A DNA stretch of 4,766 nucleotides from the IMG/VR virus record IMGVR_UViG_3300026367_000039, positions 1 to 4,766 of that record; one strand, 5' to 3'. Position 1 is the first letter of the stretch. Each line of letters starts with the position of its first letter. Origin of the DNA: a virus. Taxonomy: Duplodnaviria > Heunggongvirae > Uroviricota > Caudoviricetes. Positions 1-4,766 of the stretch are shown piece by piece. The notes under the pieces are model-generated. The model was not told the origin of the DNA, ran no database searches, and saw only the letters and a list, made by a program, of their open reading frames with translations. A program made the position numbers and the translations under genes.

Positions 1-24
1 CAATTTGGTGCGATCATAAAGCCA

Positions 25-53
25 TGAAATTACTCAGAATTGCCTACGATAAT
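25..53 (+). promoter_or_regulatory. candidate promoter for the plus-strand gene pair (weak)
   Basis: Lower-GC leader with a GATAAT -10-like hexamer at 48-53 and a poor -35 (TGAAAT, 25-30) at 17-nt spacing. Speculative. Confidence 0.12.
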
Positions 54-113
54 CAGTGCGCTGGAGCGAATGACATCACACCCAAACGATGCAACTCACC
101 ACGGAGCCACCAC

Positions 114-515
114 ATGACCACGCACGCCATCCTGCCCAGCCGCAACGAGGACCACGGGTTCTTCGGCACCCTGACCGTCTGCCCCCAGCGCGACCGCCGT
201 AGCGCGGAGGTCTGGACGCTCGCATCGACCCTGATTGCCAAAGCCATCCACGCGAACAGCGAGGACGACATGATCGGGATCCGCGACTTCCTCGACAGCT
301 GCATGGGCCGTCAATTCGCCGATGATGTGGTCAGCAACCTGATGGGTTGCAGCCTCGAGCTCGAGACCGCCATCACCTCCGCGATCCGCCGCTGGCAGGA
401 CTGGCGCATCAGCCGCCAGACCCAACGCGACGAGGGCATCCCAGCAGGCCTGCCTTACTTGACCGGCTGGGTGCAGCACTTCGCTGTCGCCGCCGCGATG
501 GCCGAGAGCGAGTGA
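114..515 (+). CDS. hypothetical protein (133 aa from ATG 114; longest ORF begins at 24)
   Basis: Open frame with strong GC3 codon bias through to TGA at 513-515. ATG at 114 is preceded by GGAG (103-106) at 7-nt spacing, whereas the ATG at 24 lies in lower-GC sequence with no Shine-Dalgarno. No family recognised by eye. Confidence 0.5.
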   Translation: MTTHAILPSRNEDHGFFGTLTVCPQRDRRSAEVWTLASTLIAKAIHANSEDDMIGIRDFLDSCMGRQFADDVVSNLMGCSLELETAITSAIRRWQDWRISRQTQRDEGIPAGLPYLTGWVQHFAVAAAMAESE

Positions 516-551: not shown

Positions 552-1133
552 ATGCCCAAACTCACCGACACCCAGACCATCGTGCTCAGCCGCGCCGCAA
601 CGCGTCCGGGCAATCTTGCGATGCCGCTGCCAGATGGCCTGCACGGCGCCGCCGCCCAGAAGGCCGTGAGCGCGATGATCACGCGCGGCTGGCTGGAAGA
701 GGTCGAAGCCGACCTTCGGCGCGGCGAGCCGCTCTGGCGCGAGACTGGCGATGGTCACGGCACCACGCTGATCGCCACCGAAGCCGGGCTTGCCGCGATC
801 GGGATCGAGCCGGTGGTGGCGACCACGATGAGCAATCTGCGCAAGGCGAAGCTGGAACTGGCCCCGGAGTTGAAAGATGCGTCCGCAGCGCAGACTGATC
901 CTGCCACGCCCAAGCCCGTCGTCCTCCGCGCGGGCACCAAGCAGGCGCAGATCATCGCATTATTGCAGCGCCCCGAGGGCGCATCGATCGGTGAGATCGT
1001 CGCAGCGACCGGTTGGATGGCCCATAGCGCCCGTGGCCTGATCTCGGGCGGCTTGAAAAAGAAGCTGGGACTGCCGATCACTGCCGAGAAAGTCGATCAG
1101 CGCGGCACCGTGTACAAACTGGTTACGGCCTGA
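552..1133 (+). CDS. DUF3489-family protein (putative winged-helix-like DNA-binding protein typical of alphaproteobacterial mobile elements)
   Basis: ATG 552 preceded by a perfect AGGAGG (541-546) at 5-nt spacing. The C-terminal segment TKQAQIIALLQRPEGASIGEIVAATGWMAHSARGLISGGLKKKLGLPI matches my recollection of the DUF3489 signature (LL.R..GAT..EI..ATGW..HS.RG..SG...KK.GL). Strong GC3 bias. Confidence 0.8.
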   Translation: MPKLTDTQTIVLSRAATRPGNLAMPLPDGLHGAAAQKAVSAMITRGWLEEVEADLRRGEPLWRETGDGHGTTLIATEAGLAAIGIEPVVATTMSNLRKAKLELAPELKDASAAQTDPATPKPVVLRAGTKQAQIIALLQRPEGASIGEIVAATGWMAHSARGLISGGLKKKLGLPITAEKVDQRGTVYKLVTA

Positions 1134-1142
1134 TCCCAGCCA

Positions 1143-1355
1143 TTACCGCCAGCGCGCGAACAGTCTGCGCAGCGCGTAGCTGCGCAGCAGGGATATGCCG
1201 ACGAAAACTGCGCCCAGCGCAAGATTGTCACCAAGGCTCGGATGCAGACCGAACCACGGGAACACCACGATCTGCGTGGCGACGGCCAGCACATAGCCCA
1301 GCGCGACATTGCTCGCGGCCTCGATCAGAGACATGCGGCGCGACTGGGCAGTCAT
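1143..1355 (-). CDS. small (70 aa) predicted two-helix membrane protein, translationally coupled to the upstream methyltransferase
   Basis: Start ATG (1355..1353) overlaps the TGA stop of the upstream gene (1354..1352) as ATGA. A strong AGGAGG (reverse complement of 1364-1369) sits 8 nt upstream. Two hydrophobic stretches (ALGYVLAVATQIVVFPWFGL and LALGAVFVGISLL) and a basic C-terminus (RRLFARWR). High GC3. Confidence 0.55.
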   Translation of the reverse strand: MTAQSRRMSLIEAASNVALGYVLAVATQIVVFPWFGLHPSLGDNLALGAVFVGISLLRSYALRRLFARWR

Positions 1356-2725
1356 GCGCGTTTCCTCCTGCGACGCGCCGGGCTCTTGGCCTCAGTTGGT
1401 TCCGCGACACGGTTGGCTGTCCGTCCCGTCGCCAGTTCCCAGCGCCGCACGGCGACGTCGCAGTAAGCGGGGTCCAGTTCCATCGCAAAACACCTCCGCC
1501 CAGCACGTTCGGCGGCCACCAGCTGGGTGCCAGAGCCGCAGAACGGCTCGTAGATCAGGTCGCCCGGATCGGTGAACGCCGTCAGCACTGCTTCAACCAG
1601 CGCCACCGGAAACACTGCGGGATGCGATCCGGCCGCGCCCAGCCCGCCCTTGTGACGCATGATGCGGAACACGCTGTCTGGGATGCGATGACTCTGGATC
1701 GCATTGCCGAAGCCCGTCTTGCGATGGACCGCGCCATCCGCCCCGCGCAAACCCCCACCGCCGAGGATCTCGCCCGCGTGCTTGCTCTCGACCGTCTTGT
1801 GCGGTTTGCGGGGCGCGCGGTTGAAGTGGAAAATGAACTCGTGCGACGGGGCCAGTCGGCCGTTCCAATCGCCCGGCAGGCCGGGCCCCTGATCCCAGAC
1901 ATACCAGCCAAACCGTCGCCAGCCAGATGCGCGCATCCATTCCACCCATCCTTCCCAATAGGGCTGCCATTCGCTGTCGCGATGCACGAGGCCAAGGTTG
2001 ACCAGCAGCTGGGCATCGGCGCAGACCGGTGCGGCAGCGAACACGCCCTGCACCAGCGCATCCCAATCGCCGACCTTTTCCTTGGCCGCGCCGTAGTCGC
2101 GTTGCTGGGCGTAGGGCGGCGAGGTGAACATCAGCGTCGCCGCCTCATTCTGCATCAGCTTGGCGACGGCGGCGGGATCGGTCGCATCGCCACAGCAGAG
2201 CCGGTGCTTGCCCAGCGCCCAGATGTCGCCCGGACGCGTGATAGGTTCAGCGGGCGGTTCGGGGATGGCGTCGGCCGCATCGTCGGAAATCACCGGGCGG
2301 TCGTCGGCGTCTGCCAACAGCGCGTCCAGTTCATCCTCGGGGATCCCGATCAGCCCGAGGTCGAAATCCTCTGCCAGCAGCGCCTGCAATTCCTGCAACA
2401 GCAGCGCTTCGTCCCAGCCGCCCAGCTCGGTTAACTTATTGTCAGCGATGCGATAAGCCCGGCGCTGCGCCTCGGTCAGATGGCCAAGAATGATGACGGG
2501 GGCCTCGGTCAGCCCAAGGTGTGCAGCTGCCAGGACGCGACCGTGGCCTGCGATCAACTCGCCATCAGCCGCGACCAGCACCGGCACGGTCCAACCGAAC
2601 TCGGCCATGCTGGCGGCGATCTTCGCGACCTGATTTGCATCGTGGGTCTTGGCGTTGCGGGCGTAAGGCTTCAGACGGGCAAGGGGCCAGTGCTCGATCC
2701 GGCCCGGCAGGATGGGTGCGTTCAT
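1352..2725 (-). CDS. ParB-like N-terminal domain fused to a beta-class DNA methyltransferase, SPPY variant (possibly N4-cytosine); 457 aa
   Basis: N-terminus MNAPILPGRIEHWPLARLKPYARNAK...DGELIAGHGRVLAAA carries the ParB/Srx-fold G-H-x-R motif. Motif IV is TSPPY, followed by HPAVFP and then the AdoMet motif I EPFCGSGTQ, i.e. beta-class order IV before I. Start placed at ATG 2725 (not the longest-ORF ATG at 2860) because the paralog alignment begins there and it forms an ATGA overlap with the upstream gene's stop. Confidence 0.85.
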   Translation of the reverse strand: MNAPILPGRIEHWPLARLKPYARNAKTHDANQVAKIAASMAEFGWTVPVLVAADGELIAGHGRVLAAAHLGLTEAPVIILGHLTEAQRRAYRIADNKLTELGGWDEALLLQELQALLAEDFDLGLIGIPEDELDALLADADDRPVISDDAADAIPEPPAEPITRPGDIWALGKHRLCCGDATDPAAVAKLMQNEAATLMFTSPPYAQQRDYGAAKEKVGDWDALVQGVFAAAPVCADAQLLVNLGLVHRDSEWQPYWEGWVEWMRASGWRRFGWYVWDQGPGLPGDWNGRLAPSHEFIFHFNRAPRKPHKTVESKHAGEILGGGGLRGADGAVHRKTGFGNAIQSHRIPDSVFRIMRHKGGLGAAGSHPAVFPVALVEAVLTAFTDPGDLIYEPFCGSGTQLVAAERAGRRCFAMELDPAYCDVAVRRWELATGRTANRVAEPTEAKSPARRRRKRA

Positions 2726-3981
2726 GCCGCCAGCCTCTTCGCCTTCAGGTCGGCAAAAGTCTCGCCAGTCTCGACCAGCGCGGCATTGGCGCCGGTGAAC
2801 TGCTGCCAGCGCTCGATGGCGACATCGACGTAAGCCGGGTTCAATTCGATGCCGAAGCACACGCGCCCGGTGGTTTCCGCCGCGATCAGCGTTGTGCCGG
2901 ACCCCATGAAAGGTTCAAACACCGCCTGACCGGGGCTGGAGTTGTTCAGGATCGGCCGGCGCATGCATTCGACCGGCTTTTGCGTGCCGTGCACGGTGGC
3001 AGCGTCCTGATCCTTGCCGGAGATGTGCCACAGCGTGGTCTGTTTCCGGTCCCCGGCCCAGTGGCCCTTGCCGGTCTTCTTCACCGCGTACCAGCAGGGT
3101 TCATGCTGCCAGTGATAGTCGCCCCGGCTGAGAACCAGCCGGTCCTTTGCCCAGATGATCTGCGAGCGCACGTTGAAGCCTGCCGCCACCAGGCTTTCCG
3201 CGACGGTCGCCGCGTGCAGCGCGCCATGCCAGACGTAAGCCACGTCGCCTGGGAACAGCGCCCAAGCCTCGCGCCAATCCGCGCGGTCATCGTTCAGCAC
3301 CTTGCCTATGCGCTTGGTTTTGGCGGCCCCCGCCTGGTTGCGCCAGGATGGGTCATATTCCACGCCATAGGGCGGGTCCGTCACCATCAGCAGAGGGCGA
3401 ATATCGCCCAGCAATCGCCCGACCACATCCGCAGACGTGCTGTCGCCGCAGATCAGCCGGTGCGATCCCAGCTGCCAAAGGTCGCCCACAACCGACACCG
3501 GCGTGACCGGCGGTTCGGGAATGTCATCCTCTCCGTCGGCAGCGCCACCTTCCAACTGGTCCGGGTCGCGCAGCAATGCATCCAGATCCTCGTCGGTGAT
3601 GCCCAGCAGCGACAGGTCGAAATCGTCGGCGAGCAGTCCCGCGATCTCATCGCGCAGCATCGCCTCGTCCCACTCGCCCAGCTCGGTCAATTTGTTGTCC
3701 GCGATCCGGTAGGCGCGGCGCTCTGCCTCGTCGAGATGGCTGAGCCGGATCACCGGCACATCCTTCAGCCCCAGCATGGCGGCCGCCAGCACACGGCCAT
3801 GCCCCGCGATCAGCTCGCCATCGTCGGCCACCATGCAGGGCACTGTCCAGCCGAACTTTGCCATGCTTGCTGCGATCTTGGCAACCTGGTCGGTGCCGTG
3901 GATCTTGGCGTTGCGGGCATAGGGGCGCAGCCGGTCAATCGGCCACGTCTCGATCTGGCTCGGTGCAAAGACCAGGTCCAT
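2722..3981 (-). CDS. ParB-like N-terminal domain fused to a beta-class N6-adenine DNA methyltransferase (CcrM/HinfI-like motifs); 419 aa
   Basis: N-terminus MDLVFAPSQIETWPIDRLRPYARNAK...DGELIAGHGRVLAAA (ParB-like). Motif IV VTDPPYG, then HGTQKP and FEPFMGSGTT, matching the CcrM-type DPPY / TQKP / FxGxGTT pattern in beta-class order. Strong GC3 bias; TGA stop at 2724..2722. Confidence 0.9.
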   Translation of the reverse strand: MDLVFAPSQIETWPIDRLRPYARNAKIHGTDQVAKIAASMAKFGWTVPCMVADDGELIAGHGRVLAAAMLGLKDVPVIRLSHLDEAERRAYRIADNKLTELGEWDEAMLRDEIAGLLADDFDLSLLGITDEDLDALLRDPDQLEGGAADGEDDIPEPPVTPVSVVGDLWQLGSHRLICGDSTSADVVGRLLGDIRPLLMVTDPPYGVEYDPSWRNQAGAAKTKRIGKVLNDDRADWREAWALFPGDVAYVWHGALHAATVAESLVAAGFNVRSQIIWAKDRLVLSRGDYHWQHEPCWYAVKKTGKGHWAGDRKQTTLWHISGKDQDAATVHGTQKPVECMRRPILNNSSPGQAVFEPFMGSGTTLIAAETTGRVCFGIELNPAYVDVAIERWQQFTGANAALVETGETFADLKAKRLAA

Positions 3982-4105
3982 GGGCGGTTCTCATTTGGGC
4001 AGAGCGGGCATGCCAACGGGCGCGGGCAATATGGCCAGCGACAGGATCGGGATCCGCGATGTGGGGGAAAACGAAAGCGCCCGAGAGGGGTGTCATCCGG
4101 GCGCA

Positions 4106-4133
4106 ATTCTTCGATGATTAAGAGGTACGTCAA
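4106..4133 (-). promoter_or_regulatory. candidate sigma70-like promoter for the methyltransferase operon (weak)
   Basis: On the minus strand, TTGACG (reverse complement of 4128-4133), a 16-nt spacer, then AAGAAT (reverse complement of 4106-4111), about 120 nt upstream of ATG 3981. The -10 match is only 4/6, so this is a by-eye guess. Confidence 0.15.
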
Positions 4134-4220
4134 GGGGGCTAGAAATGTCAACCCATTTTATGACGTGGAATCAACGCGTTCTGCGGGTTCGGGGTTTGCG
4201 GGGAAAAGCCGGTGTCGCGA

Positions 4221-4270
4221 GTGGCTTTCCGGGGTGGCTTTCTGGCCAGCGTGGCTACCAAAAAGTGGCT
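4221..4270. repeat. array of four direct GTGGCT(T) repeats (iteron-like or operator-like)
   Basis: GTGGCT at 4221, 4234, 4251 and 4265 (GTGGCTTTCC, GTGGCTTTCT, GTGGCTACCA, GTGGCTTGCC), spaced 13, 17 and 14 bp. About 0.01 occurrences of one oriented hexamer are expected by chance in 50 bp. Confidence 0.6.
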
Positions 4271-4274
4271 TGCC

Positions 4275-4295
4275 TGGATTCCACCGAGGAATCCA
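4275..4295. repeat. perfect 8-bp inverted repeat TGGATTCC-N5-GGAATCCA (candidate dimeric protein-binding site)
   Basis: TGGATTCC (4275-4282) and GGAATCCA (4288-4295) are exact reverse complements around the spacer ACCGA. Each arm contains a GANTC site. It lies immediately after the GTGGCT array. Confidence 0.6.
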
Positions 4296-4351
4296 CTTAG
4301 CCAGAAGGGTGAGACCCTAAGCATTTGATAATGAGTCAAAATTCAGGGTCG

Positions 4352-4397
4352 AGCCACTGGCTTGGCTTCGAAGTGGATTCCCCGGTGAAAAAGCCAC
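4352..4397. repeat. two opposite-orientation copies of the GTGGCT motif flanking TGGCTT repeats and a third TGGATTCC
   Basis: AGCCAC (reverse complement of GTGGCT) at 4352-4357 and 4392-4397; TGGCTT at 4358-4363 and 4363-4368; TGGATTCC again at 4374-4381. Confidence 0.5.
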
Positions 4398-4421
4398 GCG
4401 CTAGCGAAATGCCGCGCTAAG

Positions 4422-4468
4422 CCCCCCCGTATACGGATAGGGCCGGGGAGGAACCATGCTGGGGGGGG
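4422..4468. other. C7 homopolymer, 10-bp perfect palindrome CCGTATACGG, and G8 homopolymer
   Basis: C-tract 4422-4428, palindrome 4427-4436, G-tract 4461-4468. The C and G tracts are complementary and could pair, or could act as slipped-strand tracts. Confidence 0.5.
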
Positions 4469-4486
4469 TCGTGTCGGTTCCGGCCC
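4440..4486. other. GC-rich imperfect hairpin (about 11 bp of stem, 20-nt loop)
   Basis: GGGCCG (4440-4445) pairs with CGGCCC (4481-4486) and GAACC (4451-4455) pairs with GGTTC (4476-4480). No downstream T-tract, so it is not a typical intrinsic terminator. Confidence 0.35.
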
Positions 4487-4535
4487 ATTGCTGCCTTTCG
4501 CCCACCCTCGGTTATGCTGCACTGCGGTCCGCCAT

Positions 4536-4613
4536 TGCGGACTTTCGCTGCAACTGCGAAATATGATGTATAGCGAATTCACAGAGTGCGGACAAAGTTA
4601 GCATTCGCTGCAA
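4536..4613. repeat. two-copy direct repeat module TGCGGAC ... TTCGCTGCAA
   Basis: TGCGGAC at 4536-4542 and 4587-4593; TTCGCTGCAA at 4544-4553 and 4604-4613. The first copy is embedded in the small inverted repeat TTCGC-N7-GCGAA (4544-4560). Confidence 0.5.
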
Positions 4614-4766
4614 GTGCCCCATTGGCTGCTTCGTTGGCGCGAGGGTTCAGTTCTCTGTTACTGTCAAAATCCAGTCTGTAATTTGATCAAGCGAGTGTTT
4701 GGCAAATGCTTTTCGTCCCATCCCCAAATAGATATATTGCAGGTACCAAGGCCATTGAGATGTGAG

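Follow-up and report, generated by a model that had tools for sequence, protein, structure and literature searches.

A repeated motif near the right end of a 4,766-nt stretch of viral DNA, here called the window, is probably an array of recombinase sites whose crossover point, predicted between positions 4587 and 4588, opens a gene cassette belonging to an integron-like exchange system. The motif forms part of a composite junction module, termed J, that bounds self-contained mobile gene cassettes in the plasmids and chromosomes of marine Rhodobacterales. J-type junctions are also positionally locked to the gene of a small tyrosine recombinase. This positional association suggests that the recombinase acts on J.

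Gene content of the window and its plasmid relatives

The window contains a phage-plasmid-like segment, a long non-coding stretch and the end of a further gene. Outside the motif itself, its features are as follows:

24-515, plus strand: open reading frame
552-1133, plus strand: DUF3489 gene
1143-1355, minus strand: DUF7220 gene
1352-2725 and 2722-3981, minus strand: two tandem, overlapping N6_N4 (N6/N4) DNA methyltransferase genes with ParB-like N-terminal regions
3982-4646: non-coding stretch
4445-4486: imperfect hairpin, an inverted repeat with arms GGGGAGGAACC and GGTTCCGGCCC, straddling the homology break with the pRA03-type relatives
4647-4766, minus strand: 3ʹ end of a cargo gene, 39 codons plus the stop codon at 4647-4649; the frame leaves the window at its right end

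Positions 1425-4468 are about 86% identical to the Roseicitreum plasmid pRA03 and to a plasmid of P. aminovorans, p_IV, and the methyltransferase genes likewise share about 86% DNA identity with both. Common to the window, pRA03 (L001) and p_IV (L135) are the methyltransferase genes and a field of GTGGCT and TGGATTCC repeats; in pRA03, the counterpart of the window segment adjoins phage terminase genes. In the window, the GTGGCT(T)/TGGATTCC field occupies positions 4164-4400 and includes a 20-nt dyad at 4279-4298 and 4371-4390. It has the look of the genuine iteron array, or a site of the partition type, belonging to a phage-plasmid-like element.

Alignment with pRA03 and the P. aminovorans plasmid stops at about position 4466, at a poly-G tract, and divergence beyond this point is complete. 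The poly-G tract (4461-4468), where pRA03-type homology ends, forms an imperfect dyad with a poly-C tract at 4422-4428. At the same spot, pRA03 reads GGGGGGCTC, which contains the hexamer GGGCTC. The 3ʹ arm of the hairpin at 4445-4486 is CGGCCC (4481-4486), the block with which conservation in the J module opens. J joins the pRA03-like segment directly at this hybrid hairpin, and the window contains no recombinase gene. Its right end is a junction between a phage-plasmid-like (pRA03-like) segment and an imported cassette. The cargo gene possibly encodes an alpha/beta hydrolase, as its C-terminus gives weak matches to the C-termini of such enzymes (E=2e-3 to 1, tblastn).

The initial annotation had suggested that the motif might serve as an operator for the divergent direction or as an accessory site of an origin, a reading to which the long non-coding region beside the iteron-like GTGGCT/TGGATTCC field lends some appeal. 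This reading does not survive the search of related loci that the annotation had itself proposed. Both pRA03 and p_IV keep the repeat field and the adjacent genes, yet they have zero matches to models of J, of the cassette left end (LE) or of the cassette right end (RE); the motif is therefore not part of the neighboring replicon. It is kept instead in many unrelated contexts, at the edges of mobile cassettes and in the flank of a tyrosine recombinase gene. Furthermore, no gene start lies nearby, and the motif sits 15 nt past the 3ʹ end of the minus-strand gene whose stop codon is at 4647-4649. A role as operator or origin accessory site is thus barely credible.

A composite module of three directly repeated units

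The elements that the initial annotation listed between 4516 and 4613 are all in place. TTCGCTGCAA occurs at 4544-4553 and 4604-4613 (2 copies versus 0.01 expected from 200 dinucleotide-preserving shuffles), and TGCGGAC-N0-12-TTCGCTGCAA occurs at 4536-4553 and 4587-4613 (2 versus 0.00 expected). With the TGCGGAC copies 51 nt apart and the TTCGCTGCAA copies 60 nt apart, the bipartite motif is duplicated at 51-60 bp as described, and it is distinct from the GTGGCT array. While both copies are real, the homologous module is larger than 4516-4613; it spans 4481-4632 and consists of three units. A repeat search of the window independently found two families, D6 (4544/4604, 14 nt, 93%) and D3 (CCATTGCKGMCTTTCGC at 4485 and 4532, 88%), so that the head-to-tail units number three rather than two. 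The third copy lies upstream and reads CCATTGCTGCCTTTCGC at 4485, compared with CCATTGCGGACTTTCGC at 4532. In the following list and below, a caret marks a break point:

4481-4536, plus strand: unit U1, CGGCCC-ATTGCTGCC-TTTCGCC...ATGCTGCACTGCGGTCCGCCATT, supported by the J model and a column-by-column alignment
4537-4587, plus strand: unit U2, GCGGAC-T-TTCGCTGC-AAC-TGCGAA, then about 14 variable nt and an Aʹ-type end, GAATTCACAGAGT; the first copy of the initial annotation
4587^4588: predicted crossover point and cassette boundary, T^GCGGAC, placed by the breaks in other loci
4588-4632, plus strand: unit U3, the cassette left end (LE), GCGGACAAAG-TTAGCA-TTCGCTGC-AAG-TGCCCC-ATTGGCTGCTTC; the second copy of the initial annotation

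J is accordingly a composite module of about 150 nt made up of three head-to-tail units of about 45-50 nt each. Every unit contains four blocks: a core hexamer, a TTCGCNGC box separated from the hexamer by a spacer, TGCRCC and AANGKCNGCTNT. The hexamer is GCGGAC or, in a sister unit type, GGGCTC, and the two differ at three of six positions.

To avoid circularity, the J model was built from 24 recombinase-less loci of 24 genomes, with the window left out. It matches window positions 4481-4632 over their full length (E=3.3e-34, 109 bits, model positions 3-154), with the window J aligned in register with the 24 loci from end to end, and it finds no matches in shuffled sequence. The LE model scores U3 of the window at 42.3 bits (E=3.6e-11). 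Conservation extends to positions left free in the U3 search pattern, namely +9 (G), +31 to +34 (CCAA) and +36 to +44 (G.C.GCTTT), so that +31 to +44 read CCAATG.C.GCTTT. The 12 nt that precede GCGGAC lie outside the pattern and carry a conserved box of their own, AANGKCNGCWNT. U2 of the window belongs to a subtype ending in GAAYTCACA that also occurs after several recombinase genes (L148, L168, L172, L194). Of 121 distinct left flanks that were classified, 12 have the GAAYTCACANNNT end directly before GCGGAC. The GCAAGTGCCCC stretch of the window is not conserved across the motif family.

Directly repeated protein-binding sites, as the initial annotation also supposed, are the most plausible reading of this arrangement, judged from sequence. 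The dyad TTCGC-N7-GCGAA, described there as an inverted repeat, is indeed present at 4544-4560 but is not a selected feature: among 25 homologous modules, 69.6% of cells show the pairing, a level reached by 154 of 500 shuffles, and there is no covariation. The consensus displays no clear inverted binding arms around a 6-8 bp spacer, its sole dyad being GKCNGC-TNT-GCGGAC.

Nor does the module resemble a structured RNA. The window module folds no better than shuffled sequence (DNA z=-0.17, RNA z=-0.46), and the consensus fold of the 25 modules has five pairs with neither compensatory change nor covariation. The window has no Rfam match at E<=1 and no tRNA or tmRNA gene that could serve as an attachment site, and a terminator scan returned no sites. 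A structured RNA or a tRNA-type attachment site was rejected on these grounds.

Distribution of the motif family

BLAST with window positions 4469-4766 picked up short stretches of similarity in 65 plasmid records from Rhodobacterales, and the contexts are unrelated. The U3 pattern, GCGGACAAA-N7-TTCGCTGC-N3-TGC, recurs in at least 120 stretches of a one-genome-per-species collection. Among the matches listed, nearly all are from Rhodobacterales, many lie on megabase contigs and only three genomes have two loci. REP and intergenic mosaic repeats are short palindromic units with many copies in each genome; the J units are not palindromic. J-type modules are found in 43 of the 120 genome loci examined, in some cases as co-oriented arrays (five copies in L012 and three in L099), and one locus, L119, contains four units spaced 0.65-1.4 kb apart. 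On a Sulfitobacter plasmid (L002, 4840-4900), an IS3-family element lies beside J and is followed by a tandem duplication of about 29 nt, GTTGGACCCATAAGCGCTGACGTCAGACA.

J modules as boundaries of mobile gene cassettes

Each cassette starts with U3 (GCGGACAAAG...), and its other end is formed by a degenerate pair of U1 and U2 that borders on either GGGCTC or the next GCGGAC. One such cassette, which encodes an ArsR regulator and a CDF metal-efflux protein, is 1426 bp long and 98-100% identical in seven loci of seven species (L004, L014, L046, L074, L079, L086 and L097); Ponticaulis (L077) has an eighth copy, which is cut short by the contig end and is not included in the seven-locus count. The hosts of this cassette are Paracoccus, Celeribacter, Aliiruegeria, Salipiger and Pelagibaca and, outside the Rhodobacterales, Parvibaculum and Ponticaulis. 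As L014 and L074 have common flanks, the seven loci represent six flanking contexts. In all six, identity begins at T^GCGGAC and stops at GGGCTC^, and neither a target-site duplication nor inverted ends are found at the six junction pairs.

Small plasmids display the same boundaries from the side of the backbone. In two RepA/MobQ plasmids with one backbone, the motif lies exactly at the switch from backbone to differing cargo. The RepA/MobQ plasmids of L008, L005 and L134 hold different cargo in one slot, as do the RepL plasmids pLA6_12 (the "hitchhiker"), pTHAF27_d and pDSM107133_k. Backbone similarity in pLA6_12 ends on the last base of GAGCCC (1661) and returns on GTCCGC (4283). In all, six small plasmids have backbone/cassette breaks at GCGGAC on one side and at GGGCTC^ on the other, and no empty backbone site was found among eight plasmids related to the two small backbones. 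Adjoining the cassette slot of the RepA/MobQ plasmids is a gene for a 145-aa HTH_17 protein (an excisionase-type helix-turn-helix) with a coiled-coil tail (L008, 1179-1616, minus strand). This protein was rejected as a required factor, being absent from the RepL plasmids.

The consensus of 46 right ends is GACATTCGNGC-N5-GCAGCAT-N10-GGGCTC, followed by a unit of about 40 nt, N9-TTCGCYGC-N-GAACGKCNGCTTT. Left and right ends are separated by 0.5-5.8 kb (median 1.4 kb). At 91 of the 128 LE sites, an open reading frame on the opposite strand ends no more than 200 nt from the left end; the median distance is 44 nt. Cassette cargo consists of varied accessory genes, including LysR, ArsR, AraC, DJ-1, DUF418, phytochrome, SDR and CDF genes, and no transposase was found within it.

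The precision of these boundaries bears on whether J might be a lineage-specific intergenic mosaic repeat, such as a bidirectional terminator or a regulatory element, with exchange occurring by homologous recombination between copies, for example after conjugation or delivery by gene-transfer agents. The units are indeed repeated and mosaic, and J lies between convergent 3ʹ ends and opens with a hairpin arm. However, the boundaries are base-exact in independent contexts whose flanks have only short degenerate boxes in common, and such boxes fall far below the length of perfect identity needed for RecA-dependent recombination. The lack of conserved secondary structure (consensus fold of -1.67 kcal/mol) and the empty terminator scan also speak against this explanation, which is highly unlikely.

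A small tyrosine recombinase gene flanked by J

Clustering of the open reading frames in the 120 genome loci revealed no dominant neighbor gene. A tyrosine recombinase of about 210 aa is encoded within 4 kb in 7 of the 120 loci, and in these seven the gene is flanked by J-type junctions. The idea that a recombinase is encoded beside most sites was rejected. Within 4 kb, the other 113 loci lack a recombinase gene, as does the window. The protein consists of the Phage_integrase catalytic domain alone (PF00589, residues 44-195, E=6e-16). It scores far below all curated thresholds for Xer proteins, integron integrases and invertases, reaching 22.9 bits with the NCBIfam integron-integrase model (cut-off 265) and 20.9 bits (E=2e-4) with the tyrosine-type DNA invertase model (cut-off 222). 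Its best family matches are weak and of Xer type, and its closest solved relative is XerA (E=1e-3).

A metagenome scan with the recombinase protein alone yielded at least 531 relatives, of which the best 80 loci, with at least 90% identity, were analyzed. Upstream of the gene, GGGCTC lies 103-106 nt from the ATG in 56 of 72 metagenome loci. Conservation of at least 80% starts exactly at this hexamer; further to the left, nothing beyond the right-end consensus of the family remains. In about 15 pairs, the recombinase modules are near-identical, the upstream DNA is unrelated and the break falls at or a few bases inside the hexamer (^GGGCTC, GGG^CTC or GGGC^TC). Two loci, L174 and L175, have a common recombinase platform and diverge at GGCAATG^(T/C)GGAC. 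Downstream of the gene, a hairpin (GGGCCGTC...GACGGCCC) is followed by U1-U2^U3, with J starting at the 3ʹ arm of the hairpin. A model of the 330 nt downstream of the recombinase gene matches window positions 4481-4631 (E=2.5e-18), beginning at the 3ʹ arm CGGCCC.

In 46 of the 68 recombinase loci, the independent J model gives a match at a constant distance of 20-24 nt past the stop codon, and 81 of 88 positioned J matches, which lie on both sides of the recombinase gene, are co-oriented with it. An independent right-end model matches 26 of 46 recombinase loci at GGGCTC. In the loci examined for more distant homologues (about 48-68% identity), the motif is in no consistent place, and it was not found after the recombinase homologues of Sinorhizobium, Burkholderia, Kozakia, Shewanella, Vibrio and R. 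capsulatus. On an E. coli IncFIB plasmid (L217, 3492-4140), a 58%-identical small integrase gene is followed by a hairpin and AGCGGACATT. The P. inhibens plasmid pP30_b (L216), which encodes the recombinase WP_102888787, has inverted recombinase copies at 2905-3537 (minus strand) and 9001-9633 (plus strand) around a 5.5-kb acyl-CoA synthetase/Lrp segment; this pair could be an invertible or composite unit.

A J module that lacks a recombinase gene is often preceded, about 75 nt upstream, by a right end and GGGCTC (L012, L058, L060 and L069). In many cases, such modules resemble the recombinase module after a deletion. It is conceivable that the recombinase module (GGGCTC, the integrase gene and U1-U2) is the primary mobile entity, a tyrosine-recombinase insertion element of which the J modules are ends or miniature derivatives and the cassettes trapped DNA. 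The data allow equally for the module as the primary mobile unit: modules with at least 90% amino acid identity occur in many unrelated contexts with sharp edges at GGGCTC, recombinase-less J modules retain the right end and GGGCTC as if the gene had been deleted, and J in the window begins precisely at the place expected for the 3ʹ arm of the hairpin that follows the gene. The ArsR-CDF cassette, however, moves with its own U3 and right end and has differing neighboring GGGCTC units, so that segments running from GCGGAC to GGGCTC are mobile independently. Small plasmids, moreover, hold their backbone constant while the cargo varies. This explanation, which differs from a site array bounding exchangeable cassettes mainly in the naming of the element, is unlikely.

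Another candidate machinery is that of the host. XerC and XerD, the recombinases of dimer resolution, might use these sites. The cassettes would then correspond, in Rhodobacterales, to the pdif modules of Acinetobacter, and the small recombinase would be an unrelated passenger. The small cassette-bearing plasmids have no recombinase gene, as is true of the pdif-module plasmids of Acinetobacter, and the best family matches of the recombinase are of the Xer type, albeit weak. On the other hand, pdif sites are 28-bp XerC-6-XerD dyads in inverted or alternating orientation. No 11-6-11 dyad of the general dif layout is visible in the J consensus; its blocks are direct repeats over about 150 nt, and the J sites that flank a cassette are in direct orientation. 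The fixed-distance link to a dedicated recombinase gene would also have to be a coincidence. Use of J by XerC/XerD is therefore distinctly unlikely.

Proposed mechanism of cassette exchange

The preferred reading remains that J is an array of sites for the small recombinase. The catalytic-domain-only enzyme of about 210 aa would bind repeats of the GCGGAC(A)TTCGC type, of which each J has three, and strand exchange would take place at or in the hexamer. The scatter of break points among ^GGGCTC, GGG^CTC and GGGC^TC fits a crossover region that covers the hexamer. With the recombinase gene embedded in J arrays, GGGCTC lying 104 nt upstream and J 22 nt downstream, cassettes could thereby be swapped between plasmids and chromosomes. 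Because the six small plasmids examined encode no recombinase, the enzyme would have to act in trans.

A speculative refinement is that exchange involves two like-with-like crossovers, as in recombinase-mediated cassette exchange. Each cassette lies between a GCGGAC site and a GGGCTC site, and these unlike hexamers, together with the lack of empty backbones among the eight related plasmids, favor paired crossovers over single insertion and excision. Paired exchange would, in turn, explain why backbones are always found occupied. In the window, J would mark the join between a cassette with the minus-strand gene and the pRA03-like phage-plasmid segment.

Novelty and significance

Interchangeable "integration cassettes" of pLA6_12-like roseobacter plasmids have been described (Petersen et al. 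2019, PMC6789725), and the main text of that report mentions no flanking sites, integrases, transposition, palindromes or insertion site. Interchangeable cassettes also appear in a study of the Red Sea plasmidome (PMC10434023), in which the passages on cassettes give neither flanking sites nor a mechanism. The phenomenon is the same as that described here, as the cassettes of pLA6_12, pTHAF27_d and pDSM107133_k are bounded by J motifs. No description of the J system turned up in literature searches made by sequence or by topic. Relative to the published cassette reports, the junction module and its link to a recombinase are new.

More tentatively, marine Rhodobacterales may possess an undescribed form of exchange analogous to that of integrons, in which a recombinase of about 210 aa acts on double-stranded, repeat-built sites of about 150 bp and each cassette, bracketed by the heterospecific cores GCGGAC and GGGCTC, is swapped by paired like-with-like crossovers; this fuller proposal is possible rather than probable. 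Alphaproteobacteria are reported in published surveys to lack integrons. Small roseobacter plasmids such as pLA6_12 are known for identical backbones with interchangeable resistance cassettes across oceans. If the proposal holds, natural recombinase-mediated cassette exchange would be the missing mechanism behind these globally distributed "hitchhiker" plasmids, and J together with the candidate recombinase offers a concrete, testable mechanism for exchange of the pLA6_12 type. With the signature GCGGACAAAG-N6-TTCGCTGC at one end and GGGCTC-N9-TTCGCYGC at the other, cassettes could be located in genomic and metagenomic sequence. If confirmed, the pairing of a short recombinase with sites that are long, defined by sequence and possibly heterospecific might also become a genetic tool.

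Comparison with known systems

Several familiar elements were considered and rejected. A DDE transposon, insertion sequence or MITE does not fit, as the two ends (GCGGACAAAG... versus ...GGGCTC) differ and are direct, no duplication is present and there is no transposase. For a Tn7-like or Tn3-like end (TGTG..CGGACAAA, GGGG...), the bases preceding GCGGAC are unconserved, GGGG occurs in the window only and the ends are direct repeats. A MOBQ origin of transfer, in which an inverted repeat precedes a TAAGTGCGCCCT-like nick region beside the relaxase gene, was dismissed because mobA and mobC enclose the true oriT of the plasmids, ACAAACGCGCAGCGTTTGT-ATAAGTGGGCAC, which bears no relation to J. 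Neither the spacing nor the -12 element fits a resolvase res site or a minus-strand sigma-54 promoter. The integron attC site was rejected as well, since J has no hairpin, the GTTRRRY core is not conserved and the N6 following AAAG is variable. The ACAAAGTTAG stretch in the window resembles attI1; this resemblance was set aside, as it is peculiar to the window and L003 and its N6 stretch is variable.

Among tyrosine recombinase systems, the FimB/FimE-type invertases are similar in that the recombinase is of comparable size (about 200 aa), lacks an N-terminal core-binding domain and gives a weak match to the invertase model. However, the invertase score is far below threshold, and the J sites are co-oriented around exchangeable cassettes rather than forming a single invertible switch. 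Like the pdif modules of Acinetobacter, J cassettes are discrete cargo between short conserved sites that is swapped among small plasmids without a recombinase. Unlike pdif sites, J sites extend over a long stretch, run in one direction and go together with a dedicated recombinase gene. The members of an array all share one orientation, as do the two ends of a cassette, with none of the inversion seen in pdif pairs.

The closest parallel is with integrons, from which the system nonetheless differs in several ways. The J-linked recombinase, at about 210 aa and with a catalytic domain only, is far below the integron-integrase cut-off and is thus unlike IntI. Whereas attC is an imperfect palindrome that recombines as a folded single strand, J is a direct-repeat array of about 150 nt without a hairpin, and its sequence is conserved across genera. 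J cassettes are 0.5-6 kb in length, flank the recombinase gene on both sides, bear different hexamers at their two ends and often comprise a regulator and a divergent effector, so that they likely carry their own promoters. The system fails the defining features of an IntI integrase and a folded attC, yet it is integron-like in its working. As in integrons, arrays of recombination sites with a common orientation surround a tyrosine recombinase gene, a J site stands at the 3ʹ end of each cassette gene and one cassette is found in many contexts. Most J site clusters have no recombinase gene nearby, as in integron CALINs, and in both systems the cargo consists of accessory and resistance functions.
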